From the IMG/VR virus record IMGVR_UViG_3300037246_001176, positions 35,924-99,923 of that record: a stretch of 64,000 nucleotides of DNA, one strand, 5' to 3'. The position numbers and the translations under genes were made by a program. Numbering within the stretch: position 1 is the first letter of the stretch; the number at the start of each line of letters is the position of its first letter. The notes under the pieces are model-generated. The model made no database searches. It was not told the origin of the DNA and saw only the letters and a list, made by a program, of their open reading frames with translations. This DNA is from a virus. Shown here piece after piece: positions 7,820 to 63,090 of the stretch.

Positions 7820-8384
7820 GGACTATTATCTCTATAATGTCATAACCGTGCATCGTCCCGCTGACTTCAACCGCCTTGCGCTCCGTCTCCAGCGCCGCTG
7901 CCAGCCGCGAAAGCTCTGTCGCCGCCTTGCCAAACTGGGGGATGTCGCCCTGCCTCCAGCGGACGGGCTTGACCACCGTCACCGCGCCGTCCTCGTCTCT
8001 CGTCATCTCGGCCAGCGGAAAGCGCAGCATCTCCTCTATGCGCCGCTTCAGCTTGTCCGCCATGCCCCATTCCCACTCGCGCTGCTCCTCGCGCCGGGAG
8101 CGCCACAGCGCCTCGCGCTCCAGCCGCTGCATGTCCTGCCAAGCGGCGAGGCGGTCTTGCCAATGGTACTTGACAGACCACGTCTTCAGCGTCGGCAGGC
8201 GGCGCGACGGAGGCTGCTCCTGTGACGCTCTTGACACATTGCAGTAACGTTTCCAGAGCAGCGGCAGCGACCTGCCAGGCCCCATGCCGATGTAGTCCTG
8301 CAAGGCGGCGCTGGCCCTCGCCGTCTCGCCGGGGCAGCGGGCGAGAGGAGCTTCTGGATTCCAGAGAAAGTCGGTGTTAGTCAT
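7761..8384 (-). CDS. terS: Terminase small subunit
   Basis: GETARA..A...Y..MGPGRSL...WSVKYHWQDR pattern typical of TerS; directly upstream of terL. Confidence 0.75.
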   Translation of the reverse strand: MTNTDFLWNPEAPLARCPGETARASAALQDYIGMGPGRSLPLLWKRYCNVSRASQEQPPSRRLPTLKTWSVKYHWQDRLAAWQDMQRLEREALWRSRREEQREWEWGMADKLKRRIEEMLRFPLAEMTRDEDGAVTVVKPVRWRQGDIPQFGKAATELSRLAAALETERKAVEVSGTMHGYDIIEIIVHDDSDKAPVSATDNDRAEP

Positions 8385-8393
8385 GTATCAATC

Positions 8394-8996
8394 TCAACCC
8401 CTCAACCATCTATGACCGCATTTAGGACATTCATTCCACCTCTTTCCATCAGACTCACCTTCACCTTGCTCTGAGGAACTTTTTGGTGTAATGCTCAACA
8501 GCGCGTCTAGGTCGTCCCCGTCCACCCCAACCGGCAGCTCCTCTACCCGCGCCAGGTCTTGCAGCAGGGCCACGTACCGCTCCTCGTCCCACAGCCTGGC
8601 GTAGTCGTGTGTGGTGAAGTCCCTGCCGCCCGCCATAACGAGCAAATTGCAGTCAAGTGCATAGCTCTCCGCTGCCGCCTGGCTGGGCGCATCTACTCCG
8701 AACTGAATGGGCACATACCACATGCCGTCTTTGTCATCTAACATGATCCCGATGGGAGGTTTTTGCTCCTGGTCGTACATCCATCTCAGGGTTTCTACTC
8801 TCCCGTTGCCGTCCACGATAGCTCCACCTTCTTGGAGATTAGTATCAAAAGCCGGAGCATCTCTGAATCCGTGTTTTTTGAACGATTCAGCCAAGTCTGA
8901 AATCGCGTGAAGTTTCGGATTCTTTTTCCAAAGAAGCTCAATAGCTTCGTTCAAGCGGACATATTCAATTCTCAAAACCTTTTCGTCATTTGACAT
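8394..8996 (-). CDS. ParB/Srx-like N-terminal domain protein with C-terminal CPKCG
   Basis: NPKLH...L.ES.KKHGF, IVDGNGRVE; typical position before terS. Confidence 0.75.
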   Translation of the reverse strand: MSNDEKVLRIEYVRLNEAIELLWKKNPKLHAISDLAESFKKHGFRDAPAFDTNLQEGGAIVDGNGRVETLRWMYDQEQKPPIGIMLDDKDGMWYVPIQFGVDAPSQAAAESYALDCNLLVMAGGRDFTTHDYARLWDEERYVALLQDLARVEELPVGVDGDDLDALLSITPKSSSEQGEGESDGKRWNECPKCGHRWLRG

Positions 8997-9018
8997 TTTC
9001 TATAAAATCTTTTATAAT
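8990..9018 (+). promoter_or_regulatory. Sigma70 promoter for the inverted HNH gene
   Basis: TTGACA-17-TATAAT. Confidence 0.75.
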
Positions 9019-9147
9019 ATGCTCGTTCAGGTAACAGTAGCCCATCAAGCGGATTTTGTTTTATCATCATGCCCTCTAAGGCTCAAATGGGTGTTACCTG
9101 AACAATAACGCCGCTGGCCTGCGAGGGCTTCTTTGTTGAGGTAATCT

Positions 9148-9948
9148 ATGCTCAGACATTGCGAAATTTGCAAAGAACCATTTGAAACTATCACGGGCAA
9201 GCAGCGATATTGCAAAGATTGCAAATACGAACGCACTCATTGTCATATCTGCGGGCAATATGTCGCGCCCAAGAAAGAACGCAAGAAAAGGTTGTGTCTT
9301 GCTTGTTATCGCGAACAGGTAAAAGTAGAATACAAATGCATTGATTGCGGTAAGCTTGTAGCCTATGATACTATTTCCAGATGCCGCAATTGTGATACTG
9401 CCTATCGCCGCACTCATTACCGACCATGCCCGCAAGAAACCAGAGAAAAAATACGCCAACGCAACTTTGAGAGGTATCAAGATCCAGAATATAAAGCCAG
9501 GTGGCTTAAGAGTATCCAAGAGAGAAGCCGACGGCCAAGCTGGAAACTTAAACAGCAGATAGGCGCTCAATTTCGGAGCAAGAACCCGATTTATTTGTCT
9601 AATCTGCGTGCAGCTATCCAGAAAACGACTAGTACGCCAGAATGGTATGAAATCATGAAAGACAATCCCTGCTGGCAACGCGGCAAAAACCATCCCTGTT
9701 GGAAAGGCGGAGAACATAGACCAAATCAACGAGCACGCCGTTGGAAAGAGTATCGCGAATGGCGAAATGCGGTTTTTGAACGCGACGATTATGTTTGCCA
9801 ACATTGCAAGCAGCGAGGCGGCCAGTTCCAAGCTCACCATAAAAAATCTTGGGCAGATCATCCCGAATTGAGATTTGAGGTCAGCAACGGCATTACTGTT
9901 TGCGTCAAATGTCATCGGAAAATTCACGGTCACTATATTCCTGCCTAA
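9148..9948 (+). CDS. HNH homing-type endonuclease with N-terminal zinc-finger repeats
   Basis: Multiple CxxC, WKGG, YREWRNAVFERDDYVCQHC...AHH...NGITVCVKCH; GAGG RBS; the only convincing plus-strand gene. Confidence 0.9.
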   Translation: MLRHCEICKEPFETITGKQRYCKDCKYERTHCHICGQYVAPKKERKKRLCLACYREQVKVEYKCIDCGKLVAYDTISRCRNCDTAYRRTHYRPCPQETREKIRQRNFERYQDPEYKARWLKSIQERSRRPSWKLKQQIGAQFRSKNPIYLSNLRAAIQKTTSTPEWYEIMKDNPCWQRGKNHPCWKGGEHRPNQRARRWKEYREWRNAVFERDDYVCQHCKQRGGQFQAHHKKSWADHPELRFEVSNGITVCVKCHRKIHGHYIPA

Positions 9949-23013: not shown

Positions 23014-23271
23014 TCACTATACCGACAGCTTGTAGCAAAACCTGAATATGCCGATCCGCAACGATCTGTTACTGCCATATTCAAAATGGTATAATACCCA
23101 TCGGCCTTTGACATCGATCACCTTGATGCAGAAAGACGCACGCCGAAACGGATTGTCCTTCTCGTCAGAATCATCAAAAGTCCATTTCTGCCCAGGCATT
23201 ACTCTCGGCCCGAACCATGAACGCCACAATGCTTTCAACATTGCCATTCTCCTTTCTGGATTCCAGAAACT

Positions 23272-26223: not shown

Positions 26224-27234
26224 CTAGTCCTCCCAAACCCTGCTTGCGCCGCACTTCTCTTCAGCGTCCGATTCCAGCTCCGCCAGCTTCAGGTACGGCA
26301 TATCGAAATGAAGCGCCCATGTGTGCCGCCCCGCCTCGCCCCTCTGCTTCAGCATCCGCATCACAAATAATCGTTCGGTGATCGGGAACTGCGTGCCGCG
26401 AATCTCCACGAACTCGTCGTATTTGGCGAGCGCAGAATCATCCTTCGTCTGCCAGGGCCTCCACAGCGCCAGCACCAGGTCCGCGACCTGCTCCACGCTG
26501 GAGGCCCACAGGTTGTCGCGGAGTTCTGGTATCTTCTCCCTACGCCCGTCTACGTCTCTGTTCGCCTGCGACGCCGCCACGGCGGGAACGCCGATGCGCA
26601 GGGCCAGCTCCTTCAGGCGGAAAGGGACTTCCGTGACCTGCTGCACGCGGTCGCGGAAGCCTTGGACGGGCACAATCTGGATGTAATCGAACAGGATCAA
26701 CGTGGGCTTGCGGCCATAGTCCTCGTGCATCGTCTCTATGGCCTGGTAGACGACCTCGGGCGTCATCCGAGGAACTCGCTTCCCGGCCCGCCCGATGCCG
26801 TGACCGATGACCCAAATCGGGGAGGTGACGCGCCGCATCGCATGATAGCTCAATGTGTTGAGATCGACCTTGCCCCATGCAATGTCGGAGATGCTAAGAC
26901 CCTCGCAGGTGAGGAACATAGCGGCCAGGGCCTCGGCAGAGGTTTCCCAAGTGACAAAAACCACGCACTCGCTCTCCTCCATACCCCGCGCCGTGATGCT
27001 GGCAGCTTCCCGTTTCGCCATGACCGCCAGCAAGCTGGACTTGCCGTGCCCTGGCCTGGCGCAGACTACGGCAAATGTGCCAGGACGCAACGGGATGATC
27101 TTCCTGTCCACGGACGGAACGCCAAACTTTATACCAGGCTCGGCCTGCACCTTTTCGGCCCACTGTATCAGGCTAGTGGCGAGGTCGTCTGGCTTGTGGA
27201 TCAGGGCACGAAAGTCGCCGTCGCTCCGTTTCAT
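26224..27234 (-). CDS. DnaB-like replicative helicase
   Basis: ARPGHGKS, LFDYIQ, SQANR, VEQVAD, KQRG. Confidence 0.92.
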   Translation of the reverse strand: MKRSDGDFRALIHKPDDLATSLIQWAEKVQAEPGIKFGVPSVDRKIIPLRPGTFAVVCARPGHGKSSLLAVMAKREAASITARGMEESECVVFVTWETSAEALAAMFLTCEGLSISDIAWGKVDLNTLSYHAMRRVTSPIWVIGHGIGRAGKRVPRMTPEVVYQAIETMHEDYGRKPTLILFDYIQIVPVQGFRDRVQQVTEVPFRLKELALRIGVPAVAASQANRDVDGRREKIPELRDNLWASSVEQVADLVLALWRPWQTKDDSALAKYDEFVEIRGTQFPITERLFVMRMLKQRGEAGRHTWALHFDMPYLKLAELESDAEEKCGASRVWED

Positions 27235-27524
27235 CCAGCCGCCGCCGTCGCACTGTGGCCGCCCAGGGCCAGGTACAGGGCCTCCAGGCGGTCGTGCTCC
27301 ATAATGCAGCCATCAAGTTGTTGCTTGGCGGCCTTGCGGCAAGCAACATGAAAGGGGTCGGTCAGCCTCGCCGCACGGTCTGCCCGCGCCTGTTCCGTCT
27401 CAACCATGCTCTTGGCGAGAGAAGTCATCGCCAGGCCAAGGCCGACGACGCACTTTTCGCAGTATTCAGGTTGGCCGAAGCCGTTGTCCAACGAAGTCAG
27501 TCCGCCGGTGCAGTTGTCACACAT
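27231..27524 (-). CDS. Small zinc-binding protein, first gene of the helicase operon
   Basis: CDNC...CEKC; ATGA overlap with the helicase gene; own promoter. Confidence 0.6.
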   Translation of the reverse strand: MCDNCTGGLTSLDNGFGQPEYCEKCVVGLGLAMTSLAKSMVETEQARADRAARLTDPFHVACRKAAKQQLDGCIMEHDRLEALYLALGGHSATAAAG

Positions 27525-27564
27525 TCTGTCTGTCCTTTCTGTTCTCCTGTTTGCTGTCTGTTAT

Positions 27565-27593
27565 ATTATAGCATGTTACTTCTGTTTTGTCAA
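27565..27593 (-). promoter_or_regulatory. Sigma70 promoter of the helicase/primase operon
   Basis: TTGACA-17-TATAAT with TGC extension. Confidence 0.8.
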
Positions 27594-37370: not shown

Positions 37371-38615
37371 GTTGCTACCGTTGCATCAGATCTCGAATCG
37401 CGTGACGACCTCTTTGGCCTTTGGCGTGACGATCTCGCCCTTGATGATGAGAGCGAACGGGCCATCCCAATACTGTACGTCTATGGTATCGGGTAGAGCC
37501 GCCAATACGTCTGCTGCCATGAGTTCAATGTCTCCGTGTTCGTCTGGATTCAGTCGTTTTAGCAAGCCGTCCCTGGTTTCACTGGTGATGCGGATGTCTC
37601 CATCCCCATCGGCGCTGATGATAAAATACGTCACTTCTTCCACTATCCACCTCTGTTTCTTTCTCCGTCTCGCTGGCAGGGATGCGGGATTGCTACCCGA
37701 ACTTCCCATGCAGGTCTTGGAAGACCGAAGGCGCTTCTCCGTGCCCCAGCCTCTCCATCTCGCGCGTGGCGTGAATGTGCTGCACCGTCCCAGGGCCGTA
37801 CCAGGCCAGAAGCTCGCGCGCCTGCGCCAGCCGCCGCTTGGTGCTGGCAATTCGTTTCGGCGGCGTTGGCTTTCGCTGTCTGCTCATGACCCTATCCGCC
37901 AACTGCCGAGAAACGCTTTTCTGGACGGCAACGCAGCATCAACGTGCCGATGCCAGCGTCCGACAAGCTGGTGATGATGGTGTAGCCGTGTCCGTCCGTT
38001 ACCACAAAATCCTCGGCCCACGACGGCCAGGCGATAGCCTCGCTTTCCTCCGCACGGTCGCGGGCCTTGTCCCTGCCAGTCCGATAGCAGAAGTTGTCTT
38101 TCCTGCTGCACAGAGCAACGCCCGTGTTGATCACCTGACCACCGTCGTCAAGGATGAGACAGACAGTCATGCCGCCTCTCGGCATAGGCTCCCACGGGGT
38201 TAACCGCTTGCCGTTCTCATCCTTGCCAGACCGGTAATGCGCCAAGATGGTGTCAGCAGATGGTCGGTAACGCTTGTTGCTGTACACCCTGTAATGCCTG
38301 AATGTCGTCCTCATTTGTTCTCCTTTCGTTCGTATGTGCCAAGTGGCATAGTTCGTTCTGGATTCCAGAACTAGGTTTCGTCCCCGACGATCTTGGTGAT
38401 CTCTACTATTACTCCGTCGCCAATCTCAAATATCACAACCTGCCTCTCCGCCGTCACCAGGCTCAGCTCGTCGCCGCGCCAGTAGCAGCTGGCGGCGTAG
38501 TGGGTCGTGCCGTCTATGGTGACGATGTAGTTGGCCCAGGGCGGCGGCGCGGACAGGGCGCAGGCCAAGAGGAGCAGGGAGATGCAGACTATGACAAGCA
38601 GGGTTGTCTTAGCGT

Positions 38616-39896: not shown

Positions 39897-39922
39897 CCCT
39901 CGTTCTCCTGTTCTCCTGAAAA

Positions 39923-40294: not shown

Positions 40295-41134
40295 TCAAGC
40301 CGCCTGCACCAGCTCAACTTTGGTGAGGTCTCGCCACTTCGGATTCTTCGGGCTGGGAATCCAACTCACCTTCATTGGCATGTGGTATTCCTGCCCCACA
40401 CTTTCAATATCAAAGTGTCCAGCCACATATCCGGCGCTTGCCAATGCGGGGGCAACTTCTAGCAGCTTTGCTCCGCCTCTCTGCCAGCGCACCTCCGGAA
40501 AGTCACGTCCCTTACGTCGAAACTCAACCACGGCCTTACCGTCAGGCGCAGTGATGCGAATGAAATCAATAGGTTCCACCGTCACCTTGTTGACGTTCAC
40601 CGCTGGCACGGCAGCCTGCCCCGGCGCTGGCGGCGTGGTTCCCGGCGCTGCTGGCGGGGGCGGCGCGGCCTGGGCCGGTGCGGGGGGAGGGGAGGCAGAC
40701 AGCGCGGGAGGTTGCTTTGTTTCCTGCGGCTTGTCGTCCTTGCGGCGGGCGTACCGCGCTATCGTCTCGCGGGTATCGCGGCCCAAGACCGGGCCAGCGC
40801 CCAGTTCTTTGAGCCACTTGCTCACATGGCCCATCTCCAAGAGCAGCGCTTTCGTGCCCTCGGCGGTCGCCCCCTCGCGCATGGTGAAATTGATTTCTAC
40901 GCCGCCCAAGAGGAAGGTGGTAAATGCGATGCAAGTCGCCTCACGATGTCCTGGCTCTATCAGTTCTCGCAAGATCTCCCCCGCGCTTTTGTCTTTCTCT
41001 GGCACTTGTTTCTGTTCCTGTCCCCCGCTTGCTTTTGCTTCCTCGCTCACTGTCTGTTCTCCTTTCACTAGTCGTTCTATGGATTGACGTTGACGTACCA
41101 GTCCCGCCAGACTTTCACGGTTTCTGGCGGCCAC
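40295..41134 (-). CDS. Hypothetical two-domain protein with Pro/Ala linker (start uncertain)
   Basis: PPPAPAQAAPPPPAAP linker. Confidence 0.6.
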   Translation of the reverse strand: MAARNRESLAGLVRQRQSIERLVKGEQTVSEEAKASGGQEQKQVPEKDKSAGEILRELIEPGHREATCIAFTTFLLGGVEINFTMREGATAEGTKALLLEMGHVSKWLKELGAGPVLGRDTRETIARYARRKDDKPQETKQPPALSASPPPAPAQAAPPPPAAPGTTPPAPGQAAVPAVNVNKVTVEPIDFIRITAPDGKAVVEFRRKGRDFPEVRWQRGGAKLLEVAPALASAGYVAGHFDIESVGQEYHMPMKVSWIPSPKNPKWRDLTKVELVQAA

Positions 41135-41835
41135 AGCAGCCGCACCTTGTTGCTGACACCGAGGTCAACTAGCATCTTCTGCTCGTGCGCTATGACCGAC
41201 TGGCGCGAAAGACCCACACGCCCCGCTATCGCGGCGTGGGTCAAGCCTTTGAATCCGCTGGCGGGAAAGCGCAGGGCGAATATCACTTCGTCTTTCCGCG
41301 ACCACGGGAGAGAGTTTCGCCCCTGGTCGTCTAGATTCTTATAGGCATTGCGCGGCGACAGCCTCGTCGGCAGCGGCAGGTCGCCCGCTCCTTCTCGGAA
41401 GCTCTTGAGCGCATCGCCGCCGTGCCGCACCGCCGGAAGCAGCCGCGTTATCACCGAGCAGTGCGCGGTGCTCCGAAAGCCCAGGAAGCAGGCAAATTCG
41501 TCCGTGGTCAATGGTTCTGTTGGTAGCGGTTCCGTCATGATGTCGGTCAAATATGCCCGACATGGAGCTAGTACCGCTTTCAGAATACCATACCCTATGT
41601 TACGTTTGTGCTGAACACGGCCAGCCTGCGTTCCACCAAGCTGTGCTATCATTTCCTTGCGCGAAAGACCAGCAACAATGCTCTGGCACGTTACCACATC
41701 GTCAATACTGTAGCCAAGCGTGAGTAATGCTGTCATCTTTGCCTGGATGCATTCCGTGAAAGCGGCAGTACGCTCTGGATCGAGCCGCCACTGCTTTCCA
41801 AAAATTGAGTTCATCTGTCGCCGTCCGATATTCAT
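41077..41835 (-). CDS. Putative HTH / sigma region-4-like regulator
   Basis: LTHAAIAGRVGLSRQSV; own promoter TTGACA-17-TATAAT at 41901-41873. Confidence 0.55.
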   Translation of the reverse strand: MNIGRRQMNSIFGKQWRLDPERTAAFTECIQAKMTALLTLGYSIDDVVTCQSIVAGLSRKEMIAQLGGTQAGRVQHKRNIGYGILKAVLAPCRAYLTDIMTEPLPTEPLTTDEFACFLGFRSTAHCSVITRLLPAVRHGGDALKSFREGAGDLPLPTRLSPRNAYKNLDDQGRNSLPWSRKDEVIFALRFPASGFKGLTHAAIAGRVGLSRQSVIAHEQKMLVDLGVSNKVRLLWPPETVKVWRDWYVNVNP

Positions 41836-41906: not shown

Positions 41907-42428
41907 CTATTGTATCTGTTTCACCCTCGCATATGGAGATGCTGGAGACCTGAGCACCACGCCTGGGACATCGCCCTCGCCTTTGATCCATCCCTGCAAG
42001 TCGGAAGTCGGCCTGACGGTGAGCTTGACCAGACCCAGCCTTTCTTTCAGAGACAAGAAGGATACGAGCGCCGCTGGATCAAGGACTTCCAGCTTCTCCT
42101 TTTTGGGAACGGTGATGCTAACCTTCCAGCCGTTGACTGTTACAGATTGCTTTCCGCCAAATTCCTCGGCGTCATCTTGCCACGCAGCGAGAGCCAGGAA
42201 TTCGGCTTCCCTGCCCATCTCAGCCAAGCGACGGTGCAAGTCTTCCGTCGCCTTTTCCCATTCTTGGCAAAGCCTGGTCTTTTTCCCATCAATTTTAGCC
42301 AGCTGCTGACGAAGAGGTGCTTCTTCATCCTCAAAATCCTTCAGGAGCGCGTCAAGAGCATCGTTGCTGGGTTTCAGTTCCTCTTGGATTGATTCTATAT
42401 CTTGTAACTTGGCGATCAATGCTTGCAT
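41907..42428 (-). CDS. Coiled-coil Gam/Gp157-like protein
   Basis: Coiled coil followed by a beta segment and VPGV C-terminus. Confidence 0.45.
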   Translation of the reverse strand: MQALIAKLQDIESIQEELKPSNDALDALLKDFEDEEAPLRQQLAKIDGKKTRLCQEWEKATEDLHRRLAEMGREAEFLALAAWQDDAEEFGGKQSVTVNGWKVSITVPKKEKLEVLDPAALVSFLSLKERLGLVKLTVRPTSDLQGWIKGEGDVPGVVLRSPASPYARVKQIQ

Positions 42429-42447
42429 TTCAGACTCCCTTTCTAAC

Positions 42448-42557
42448 TTGACAATTATTTTGGTTTGTGGTACAATGACTACACTGTCCTTGAGCGGTTC
42501 TCCCGCTCATCTGTTCTCCTGAAGAAGCTCAGCATTACGCGCCGCTGAGCTTCTTTA
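42448..42557 (+). ncRNA. Small RNA (about 75 nt) with its own promoter and terminator
   Basis: TTGACA-17-TACAAT (42448-42476), hairpin TGAGCGG/CCGCTCA, terminator AAGAAGCTCAGC/GCTGAGCTTCTT plus T-tract. Confidence 0.65.
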
Positions 42558-42781
42558 TTTCTGGACTCCAGAACCGTCAACGGTCTAAAGACGGCTCTGG
42601 CAAGTCAAGCCTGGACGCATAGGCACGCAACCGCACCGCCAGCCGAGTGCGCCAGTGCCGCTGCCACCGAACATGGATTCGCTCCCGTTCCTGGCGTTCT
42701 GCTTCCCTCATCGCCCGCATGCAAACTCGCATCCCCCTGAACACAGGCTCCCAAGCCATGTGTTCCCGCGCTTCCTCAAAA

Positions 42782-51265: not shown

Positions 51266-51340
51266 ATTATAGCATATCACGTTTTATTTATCAAGCAAAC
51301 AGCCGAATATCGCTGTATTTTTAAGGTTAGAGCCTGTTTC
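51266..51340 (-). promoter_or_regulatory. Repeated promoter cassette, copy 3
   Basis: TTGATA-17-TATAAT, CTAACCTTAAA, GTTGAGCAAG; downstream gene starts at 51221. Confidence 0.75.
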
Positions 51341-51789
51341 CCGCCCCTTTTCCTCCGCCTCTCCGTCTCTGCCTGTCCCCGCCTCTGCCCTCCCTGTGGC
51401 TGGGTAGCTGTTGCAGGCTGCGGCGGCTCTGTTGGCGGGGATATGAGAGGCCCTTGACTTTCAGAGGGAGAGAGTGATAGAGAGACGGATCCCCCCCAGT
51501 AGGGGAGAATCCGTTACTTGACTTTCGTCGGTCGGTCGGTCAGTCGTTCAACGGCCTGCTGTAGCAGGAACAGACTTCAGGGAGAGACCCAGTTGCTGCG
51601 CCAGGTAATTCCCATCGTGTCCAGGCATCCTCTTTTTCCACTTGTCTGTCATCCCTGGCTTTCGCCGGATAGCGGGATATGTCACTAGCTGTGACTCTGG
51701 AGTTTTGTTGGCTGTAAACGCCAACTACCGAAACGTAACCTCTGCCCCGCTTGTCGCAGGGTGGCCAGGGCTTTTAGACCGTATTGTAT

Positions 51790-52864: not shown

Positions 52865-54039
52865 GCCCCGCTCAAAACTCATAGTCCTCACTGTTCGCCA
52901 GAGCCACAATAATGCTCCGCACATCCAGCCCCGCACGCCCAGAGACCGGCTTCTGCCTGGGCCAGAGACGGCGCATCGCCGCGCTCACGGCTTCCCGAAT
53001 CATGGTCCCTATTCTCATCGTCAGTCCCTCACCGGCACGCCGTGCTCCTGCAACACATGCCAGGCCCACTCTTCTTGCGATTCATGGACGGAGAAGACGA
53101 AACCGCTTTCGGGAAACGGCAGGCCCATCCAGCCCCAGCTTTCAACGCCGAAATTCTCAAGCAGCCGTTCCGCGTCCCTGGCAGACCAAGCCCCCCCTTC
53201 TTCCATCGTGAACATCACGGCATCGCCAGCCATGAGATTGCGATACAGTGCCACCGTCGGCGTTATCCAGTCCGTGATCGTCGCCAGCTTCAGCAAGTCC
53301 ATCAACAAGTTCCTTCGAGAAGCATAAAGAGCACACCTAGAATACCGCCAAGGCTAAGCCCCATGCCGAAGCAGGCGTAACAACGCATCGTTCTTAGATT
53401 TTCCACTTCGTCTTTTGTCTCCCCAACCGTCGATCTTCGCCCGAAGGTTCCCGTCGGCCCTGGCCCCTCAACTGTCGAATATTGGCCCGGTAGCTCCTGT
53501 CGGGGGCCGGTTGGCCCTTCCACCGTTGATTTCGCCACTTTGTCTCTCGTTTCTTTGTCATTCATCTTGCAGTCTCCTTTCTCCGTTTCTGGATTCCAGA
53601 ATCGCCATCTCTGCCGGAACTTCCAGCCGCTCCTGCTCCCGCATCGCCAGCCACATTCTGCCAAGAGCGGCCAGAGCTAACAAGTTAGCAGGCTGTGCTG
53701 GCATAGCACGAGATCGTTCTAGATAGTTGGTCAGAATCGGAAATCCGACGAACATCGCCAGGCCAGCAAGACTAGCAAGAATCAAATACGGAAACATCGT
53801 CGCCAGCAACCTGCCAGAAGCGTCAGAACGAATGCTTGCAGACTCGGCAGACGCCAAAGTCCGCGCCGCGTCCGCCTCGCCGCGAGCGCGAACGAGCCGC
53901 GACTCCTCCGCCAAACGCTGCGCCTGCGCGTCCTGCTGGCCGTTCCACGCTTCCACCAGGAACACGCCGCCGACTATGGCGACAGCTACGATCAGGAGTA
54001 TCAGGATTGCTTGAGCCATGCTGTTTTCCTTTCCTATAT

Positions 54040-57831: not shown

Positions 57832-57903
57832 CACCCCGGTGAGGGCTTGAACCTCAACTAGCGGGTTTGGAGGCCGCCGTTCTGCCGGTTAAACTACCGG
57901 GGC
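57832..57903 (-). tRNA. tRNA-Trp (CCA)
   Basis: GCCCCGG/CCGGGGT acceptor, anticodon loop CTCCAAA, T-arm TGAGG-TTCAAGC-CCTCA, G73; no encoded CCA end. Confidence 0.88.
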
Positions 57904-58717: not shown

Positions 58718-59196
58718 ATGCTCCGTTTCCCCTGCCTTCCCGTTTCTGGATTCCAGAACACCTAGCAACAGATACACAAACGCCCTGGGTTGGTCAGGCC
58801 CAGGGCGTCCGGCGAAAGGAGGAGAAAGATGATTTCTATGGATATGATACTATGTGTACGTTCATCCCCGGCAGCTCCAGCTTCAGCAGCCGCCCGTAGC
58901 TGTCTTGGAACTGCCACGGCTCGTCGCACACTTCCGTCCTGTACGGCCTCTCTGGCCAAATGGGAGCGCCGAGCAAGGAGCCGAGCTGCGCCTTCTCTAT
59001 GAGGTGCGCGAATCCCTGAACCGTCCCCGGATGCGGGAACTGTACAGGCTCACCGTCCCACAAGTCGGGGAACCCCTTCCACCAGCCGTGGTCGTGAATC
59101 ATGAAAATGAGCGGCCTGGGCTTGTCCCGCAGAACATAGTTCAGCCAAATCAAAGAGGAGAACTCGCTACCTTTTCGGAACATCTGCTCTGCCGCG

Positions 59197-62975: not shown

Positions 62976-63090
62976 TCTGTTTCCTTTCAAGCATGTTGCA
63001 TCAATCACAAAGCATCTTATTATAGTCAAGATTCGGTTTGGTGTCAACAGCTGAATTTCGGAAAGAAGCGTAAAAAGTTTTGCCGACTTC

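Follow-up and report, generated by a model that had tools for sequence, protein, structure and literature searches.

Most of what is known about regulatory RNAs in phages comes from a small number of temperate model phages, and RNAs acting in trans on the replication genes of the phage that encodes them are rare. Among the antisense RNAs of temperate phages, sar blocks the translation of ant and OOP pairs with the cII mRNA (PMC12197685). In the C4 system of P1 and P7, two segments of a structured RNA of ~77 nt pair around the ribosome-binding site (RBS) and block translation (PMC12197685; Citron and Schuster 1992, cited in PMC8546580). In the R1 CopA/Tap/RepA, IncI repY-repZ and repR-repA systems, the antisense RNA blocks a leader ORF of 19-29 codons that abuts or overlaps the downstream start (PMC8053102). 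Control of many start sites by a single factor is represented by T4 RegA, a competitor of ribosomes for the start sites of numerous early mRNAs, including those of replication genes (PMC3014915).

The locus described here lies in the genome of an uncultured phage of ~100 kb, and a marine-sediment DNA metagenome, probably the source of the record, is the only public run containing it. The virus record is rated 100% complete and has direct terminal repeats, the first 127 bases of its 99,923-bp sequence being repeated at its end. The stretch analysed (the window, 64,000 bases) comprises bases 35924-99923; positions given below are those of the window unless they are marked as genome positions. 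GC skew is negative along the entire plus strand and nearly all long ORFs lie on the minus strand, indicating a single direction of transcription. Integrase, resolvase and ParB are absent from this genome, rated 100% complete, so that the phage is probably virulent and a role in immunity does not apply to a small RNA encoded by it. Over the whole window, the only Rfam match at the gathering threshold is a tRNA, with a tRNA gene at 57832-57903 (minus strand, 53.7 bits).

Within a minus-strand operon of this genome, a plus-strand unit is predicted to encode a small RNA complementary to translation start sites (Table 1). From its promoter, fold and complementarity, it appears reasonably likely that this RNA exists and that it controls one or more of the start sites through base pairing. 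Its ends are inferred, the 5' end at 42483 +/- 2 nt and the 3' end at about 42562. The 80-nt RNA has a minimum free energy of -32.8 kcal/mol (z -6.25) and is predicted to fold into two hairpins and two single-stranded stretches. The sequence of stem-loop 1 is unique in the window, and the terminator hairpin was overlooked by a simple scan because the loop limit of that scan was 8 nt. The 10-nt loop and the interrupted U tract of this hairpin are points against a functional RNA.

Table 1. Positions of the predicted small RNA, its parts, its candidate partners and neighbouring features in the window.
Feature	Position	Strand	Remarks
Small-RNA promoter	42448..42476	+	TTGACA, 17-nt spacer with extended -10 TG, TACAAT; 11/12 positions
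Predicted small RNA, ~80 nt	42483..42562	+	Start placed 7 nt after the -10; end in U-rich tract
5' single-stranded seed, 8 nt	42484..42491	+	Identical to 27530-27537; unpaired in MFE fold
Stem-loop 1	42491..42509	+	7-bp stem; 5-nt loop with second anti-Shine-Dalgarno motif
Linker seed, 12 nt	42510..42521	+	Anti-Shine-Dalgarno, pyrimidine-rich; exact at 27538-27549
Terminator hairpin	42520..42562	+	12-14 bp, 10-nt loop, interrupted U tract
26-codon ORF	42430..42510	-	Family-type RBS well placed; putative, read from sequence
173-aa gene, Mu Gam / Gp157-like lead	41907..42428	-	Directly downstream on operon mRNA
Helicase-operon promoter (27593-27565) and ~34-nt T-free leader	27525..27593	-	Consensus promoter; 20-nt target 27530-27549
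97-aa Cys-rich ORF (27231-27524) and DnaB-like helicase (26224-27234)	26224..27524	-	4-nt overlap
251-aa gene start site (GTG at 41050)	41018..41063	-	Second candidate trans target; co-fold ddG -31.3
RNA ligase RBS, tandem Shine-Dalgarno motifs	39908..39920	-	13-nt perfect partner of linker seed
140-aa gene start site	38306..38324	-	9-nt and 7-nt seed partners, 3 nt apart, flanking ATG
Palindrome TTCTGGAATCCAGAA copies	58744-58758, 53587-53601, 42559-42573, 38356-38370, 23254-23268, 22999-23013		Gene junctions

On the minus strand, the stop codon of a small ORF (42577) is followed by a 15-bp palindrome, the large hairpin, the RBS and 26-codon ORF, and the 173-aa gene; the gene preceding the small ORF encodes a 3'-5' exonuclease-like protein. 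The 26-codon ORF includes the small hairpin and the entire antisense promoter, and 1 nt separates its stop codon (42430-42432) from the next ATG (42426-42428). The small RNA covers the RBS, the ATG and the first 9 codons of this ORF and is complementary to the operon mRNA at 80 of 80 positions; as predicted, it is first of all a cis-antisense RNA over a start site upstream of the Gam-like gene. The 173-aa protein has no Pfam or PHROG match. Its likeness to Mu Gam / Gp157, which comes from comparison with Phage_Mu_Gam clusters (Atlas feature score 0.92, TM 0.54), is taken as a lead only; a single-sequence AF2 model of the protein was poor (pLDDT 59.5). This gene has a Shine-Dalgarno (SD) motif 6 nt before the ATG, and the centroid fold of the minus-strand RNA leaves this motif unpaired; with an accessible SD of its own the gene does not require control via the 26-codon ORF. 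The product of the first gene of the next operon (41077-41835, minus strand) weakly matches GerE and sigma-70 region 4 at its C terminus (E about 0.01-0.02, short of the cut-off) and may be a transcription factor for later genes.

The preliminary description had reported that, with the hairpin looped out, two segments of 8 and 12 nt are identical to 27530-27549 and 20/20 complementary to the mRNA of an ORF coupled to a DnaB helicase, and this was borne out in every letter and coordinate. The segments 42484-42491 and 42510-42521 together make up the contiguous 20-mer, at -6 to -25 relative to the ATG at 27524. The coupling is supported by the 4-nt overlap of the ORFs, and the DnaB_C assignment holds (E 7.8e-26; phrog_19 E 5e-33); a weak primase zinc-ribbon match lies further down the same operon. 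The target occupies +10 to +29 of the leader, SD included, and no further match to the 20-mer was found at up to 3 mismatches.

The helicase leader is the only perfect 20/20 trans partner. In a genome-wide seed-only duplex scan (genome mean -9.0, sd 4.5), the joined seeds reach -37.6 kcal/mol with this leader, compared with -28.8 for the next best site (z about -6.4). When the whole RNA is co-folded with the leader (ddG -26.1 kcal/mol), stem-loop 1 and the terminator are kept and a three-way junction is formed. The match begins 0-3 nt from the inferred 5' end and covers almost all non-hairpin bases and none of the hairpin interior, so that the borders of the identity coincide with the structural borders of the RNA, and the flanks of the cis locus and the leader have no residual similarity. 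A specific 12-mer is expected elsewhere in 100 kb about 0.01 times and, given the 12-mer, the chance of also finding the 8-mer next to it is about 4^-8 for each spacing allowed, giving p < 1e-3 by our own arithmetic. The promoter, the two hairpins and the split 8+12 identity are not the product of chance. Repression of the helicase operon by the small RNA, as predicted from this pairing, falls somewhat short of being probable.

The 12-mer belongs to a repeated start-site motif, and that part of the match is therefore not specific to the helicase leader. The genome contains five copies of the 9-mer core of the motif (AGGAGAACA), every one of them on the sense strand at a start site within 27.5-42.5 kb, namely at the 26-codon ORF, the helicase-operon leader, the RNA ligase (phrog_968, E 2.8e-50), the 251-aa gene and the 140-aa gene. 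The extension of the motif beyond the SD is not complementary to the usual 3' end of 16S rRNA. Exact matches to the small RNA of at least 11 nt elsewhere in the genome are limited to the ligase (13 nt), helicase (12 nt) and gene-251 (11 nt) sites, all of which involve the linker and are start sites. The ligase match, first put at 11 nt (39908-39918), is present and extends to 13 nt (39908-39920). The preliminary description had also considered that the whole match might be only a duplicated RBS serving the 26-codon ORF, and this is partly true for the 12-mer, which belongs to the five-copy start-site motif.

Co-folding extends the set of predicted partners. A duplex scan with the whole RNA, which ignores the cost of unfolding and puts GC-rich coding regions first, was replaced by the seed-only scan and by an accessibility-aware co-fold scan of the entire sense transcriptome (mean -6.0, sd 3.9). 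The best trans value of the latter belongs to the gene-251 site (-31.3, as against -26.4 for the helicase leader), where stem-loop 1 is opened rather than kept; the helicase leader is thus the top site when seeds alone are scanned, but not the top trans match when accessibility is taken into account. The co-fold ddG is -19.3 at the 140-aa gene and only -13 to -15 at the RNA ligase. The 5' seed finds partners in the co-folds with the helicase leader, the gene-251 site and the gene-140 site, and both seeds pair in the same order at spacings of 0 (helicase leader), 3 nt (gene 140), 18 (cis locus) and 27 (gene 251). A purine-rich non-coding tract at 51334-51393 (minus strand) is predicted to form a strong, GU-rich duplex with the small RNA (scan value -29.0, and -21.6 after re-folding), which is probably an effect of composition.

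The preliminary description had proposed a trans-acting switch on phage DNA replication. The bipartite unit and its complementarity to the helicase leader hold by sequence, fold and energy, whereas the role as a replication switch is only partly supported: the linker fits five sites, the gene-251 site co-folds better, and the RNA is primarily antisense to its own locus. Its structure and predicted partners fit those of a seed-type trans-acting small RNA, though the partners are mutually related in sequence. The five start sites align as a family, with mutual local scores of 20-25 compared with 24-28 against the cis locus. What the cis locus has in common with the others differs from site to site: with the ligase site it is 19 nt upstream, with the helicase leader the 8-mer, and with genes 251 and 140 the start codon plus the bases after it, 11 + 6 + 3 nt being shared with the gene-251 site. 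The start site of the 26-codon ORF resembles those of genes 251 and 140, and the start of the ORF resembles a shortened copy of the start of gene 251.

This mutual similarity bears directly on a more restricted reading, in which the RNA is real and acts only locally, as a cis-antisense RNA or through a convergent promoter, the Gam-like gene being expressed less as a result of duplex formation and cleavage, of a block of the 26-codon ORF or of transcriptional interference, and in which the trans matches are inherited similarity among duplicated RBS cassettes with no regulatory use. The sites resemble one another, and short exact repeats are common at gene junctions (178 pairs of at least 14 nt, compared with about 20 expected), so that the trans complementarity could largely be a by-product of paralogous RBS cassettes, and the likeness of the 26-codon ORF to gene 251 suggests a duplicated gene start. 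Complementarity also extends over 80/80 positions in cis compared with at most 20 in trans (-74.8 versus -26 to -31), and the known phage examples sar and OOP act in cis (PMC12197685). However, simple duplication does not account for the exact 8+12-nt identity with the helicase leader, nor for the end of that identity exactly at the hairpin borders and the transcript start between flanks that have no residual similarity, and, were both RNAs present in the cell, formation of a perfect 20-bp duplex between the small RNA and the unstructured leader (ddG -26) could hardly be prevented. A purely local action is therefore considered unlikely. Whatever the origin of the similarity, an RNA of this sequence, if made, would be expected to pair with the start sites of the family.

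The promoter proposed for this RNA (TTGACA-17-TACAAT, plus strand) was recovered by a promoter scan with the letters and coordinates first given (-35 at 42448-42453, TG at 42468-42469, -10 at 42471-42476), and it belongs to a family. TTGACA-17-TAnAAT occurs 14 times genome-wide, compared with 0.01 expected from Markov simulations, and 11 of the 14 sites carry the TG. Eleven of the 14 (13 if spacers of 16-18 nt are allowed) are on the minus strand upstream of genes, and three are on the plus strand of a genome whose genes essentially all run on the minus strand. In the window, near-perfect sigma-70 promoters are found on the minus strand at 63047, 58671, 57769, 52864, 47229, 45297, 41901, 33177, 27593, 20100, 10184 and 10014 and on the plus strand at 8990 and 42448. 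The leaders of the family are purine-rich and nearly T-free, and several promoters have leader starts in common (for example 20050/45248 and 45261/58635), indicating that promoter-plus-leader cassettes appear to have been duplicated.

The other plus-strand units differ in what follows the promoter. The unit at 8990-9147 has a perfect consensus promoter and a structured leader of ~80 nt closed by an 11-bp stem, behind which lies one of the very few plus-strand genes (ORF 9148-9948). The sibling unit at genome 10926-11075, outside the window and between two minus-strand ORFs, has a consensus promoter and a strong GC-rich terminator, with ~105 nt in between in which TTTGGT repeats abound; its RNA is without extended complementarity to any start site, its matches being scattered as by chance. 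The promoters at 42448 and genome 10926 are each followed, within a minus-strand operon, by ~80-115 nt of structured sequence that contains no ORF and closes with a terminator-like hairpin. Taken together, the promoter family, the sibling unit and the hairpin-ended ORF-free sequence indicate that the small-RNA promoter is almost certainly functional, and an RNA of ~80 nt is likely to exist.

These observations also weigh on the reading in which there is no regulatory RNA, the plus-strand promoter being silent, a relic or in other use such as priming or activating replication, the hairpins being intercistronic structure of the minus strand, and the 20-mer being a duplicated RBS split by a hairpin. 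The minus-strand intergenic RNA is itself highly structured (z -5.27), hairpin-plus-RBS elements occur at other junctions as well, and the minus-strand RBS is well placed for the 26-codon ORF. On the other hand, a chance origin of the promoter is very unlikely, since TTGACA-17-TGnTAnAAT is expected ~0.01 times per genome, and the large hairpin is followed at the right distance by a U-rich tail on the plus strand only; the minus strand has no such tract, so that read-through of the operon mRNA is expected there. The ORF list contains no plus-strand ORF downstream of the 42448 promoter, and no AT-rich unwinding region, iterons or GC-skew switch lie nearby. The absence of any regulatory RNA is accordingly regarded as quite improbable. 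Other readings were rejected as well. The hydrophilic nature of the 26-aa peptide speaks against a type I toxin-antitoxin system; a TnpB guide RNA is at odds with the 3.4 kb between the unit and tnpB and with the hairpin that interrupts the match; and a role as replication origin or primer was dismissed for want of a skew switch or iterons.

Searches for relatives of the locus covered both proteins and DNA. The 173-aa protein, which a second contig also carries, matched only itself among 5.8 billion proteins and had no match in phage records, and protein-seeded scans with the neighbouring-gene proteins against viral, metagenome and genome contigs returned nothing. The DnaB-like protein has only relatives of 50-55% identity, which have a different upstream gene and no comparable leader, and its best matches among cultured phages are below 30% identity. 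With a DNA pattern of the two seeds, just two matches came up, both of them by chance in coding sequence of unrelated contigs, and blastn against phage records gave no match. Contigs of the source run contain strain variants of 80-90% identity elsewhere in 27.3-42.7 kb, with none at the small RNA among the matches listed; at 27405-27480, two or three of these contigs (~80-90% identity) run into the 5' part of the 97-aa ORF and diverge before 27405. Related strains thus exist, though only as short pieces.

The 15-bp perfect palindrome (TTCTGGAATCCAGAA) is present between a stop codon and the next RBS at at least six gene junctions, the copy at 42559..42573 carrying one central mismatch, and variants of it are found at 8352-8366 and at genome 32477-32491. 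Its possible roles include those of a small RNA hairpin, an operator for a protein and a joint for recombination. The 140-aa gene has its family-type RBS within the 60 nt at 38315-38374, together with a hairpin and a copy of the palindrome, and a lower-depth contig of the source metagenome skips all of these 60 nt, indicating that strain variants differ in their junction modules.

In the preferred reading, the RNA is made and acts by base pairing with translation-initiation regions. Host RNA polymerase would transcribe 42483-42562 as a non-coding RNA of ~80 nt, against the single direction of transcription of the phage, with a free 5' tail, a small hairpin with an anti-SD loop, a free pyrimidine-rich linker and a terminator hairpin. 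In cis, it would pair with the operon mRNA over the RBS and first codons of the 26-codon ORF, which ends 1 nt before the Gam-like start. In trans, it would pair 20/20 with the short unstructured helicase leader, looping out the hairpin as a three-way junction, and less perfectly with the start sites of the 251-aa, RNA-ligase and 140-aa genes. Ribosomes would be excluded, possibly followed by mRNA decay, and as the RNA accumulates a set of early DNA-metabolism genes would be turned down, while operon mRNA with its perfect 80-nt site may compete with the trans targets. As the phage appears virulent, the likely role would lie in the timing or dosage of early DNA-metabolism functions rather than in immunity, which would make the RNA a counterpart of the T4 RegA protein (PMC3014915).

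A more far-reaching version, which we advance tentatively and hold to be rather unlikely, is that this virulent phage uses a single 80-nt RNA as its equivalent of T4 RegA for repressing a family of start sites, those of the helicase operon, of the RNA ligase and of two further genes. On the helicase leader, the two seeds flanking the hairpin would close on the contiguous 20-nt target in an unusual three-way junction; the origin of the RNA would lie in a consensus promoter that came to read an additional start-site copy backwards; and the operon mRNA with its perfect cis site would act as a sponge that times release.

The prediction is a clear one, in that promoter, terminator, seeds and target are each short and explicitly defined, and because the promoters are of the E. 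coli type the RNA-target pair can be tested with synthetic DNA even though phage and host are uncultured. Antisense transcription of a duplicated start site is suggested as a route by which such RNAs may originate, and lone consensus promoters on the opposite strand of genomes transcribed in one direction are suggested as a search pattern for metagenomic phages.

In comparison with the described systems, the small RNA belongs to none of the sar/OOP, C4 or CopA/Tap types. Like P22 sar and lambda OOP, it would be a short RNA (~70-80 nt) driven by a promoter of its own that faces an early operon, encoded between two cistrons and overlapping an RBS (PMC12197685), and sequence prediction indicates its own convergent promoter, an intrinsic terminator and an intercistronic RBS overlap. 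Those RNAs, however, belong to temperate phages and serve in the lysis-lysogeny decision, whereas the present genome lacks integrase, resolvase and ParB and its RNA has a perfect trans partner 15 kb away together with a family of partial partners; sar and OOP have no sequence or Rfam relation to it.

The resemblance to P1 C4 claimed in the preliminary description stands as an analogy only. It holds for two short segments complementary to an RBS-covering target (here 8 + 12 nt at 27530-27549), and not for family membership, processing or immunity. The C4 covariance model gave no match at E <= 10 in 42380-42640 (three chance cmscan matches, none of them C4). C4 is processed from the operon transcript that it controls and is part of prophage immunity, whereas the present RNA has its own opposite-strand promoter and terminator in a phage that is probably virulent; its segments flank a hairpin rather than sit in loops, and its target segments are contiguous. 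The site blocked by C4 serves a small upstream ORF (icd), to which expression of ant is coupled.

As in CopA/Tap, a short leader ORF (26 codons here) lies under an antisense RNA with its stop abutting the next start, but the downstream gene is a Gam-like lead rather than a replication initiator, its own accessible SD does not indicate obligatory coupling, and the arrangement is not a plasmid copy-number circuit. The likeness to T4 RegA, a 122-aa protein whose A+U-rich sites have no strict consensus where the present RNA would use Watson-Crick pairing, is a functional analogy only: RegA is one phage factor acting at many start sites, and the proposed trans action of the small RNA on four sites would follow the same logic.
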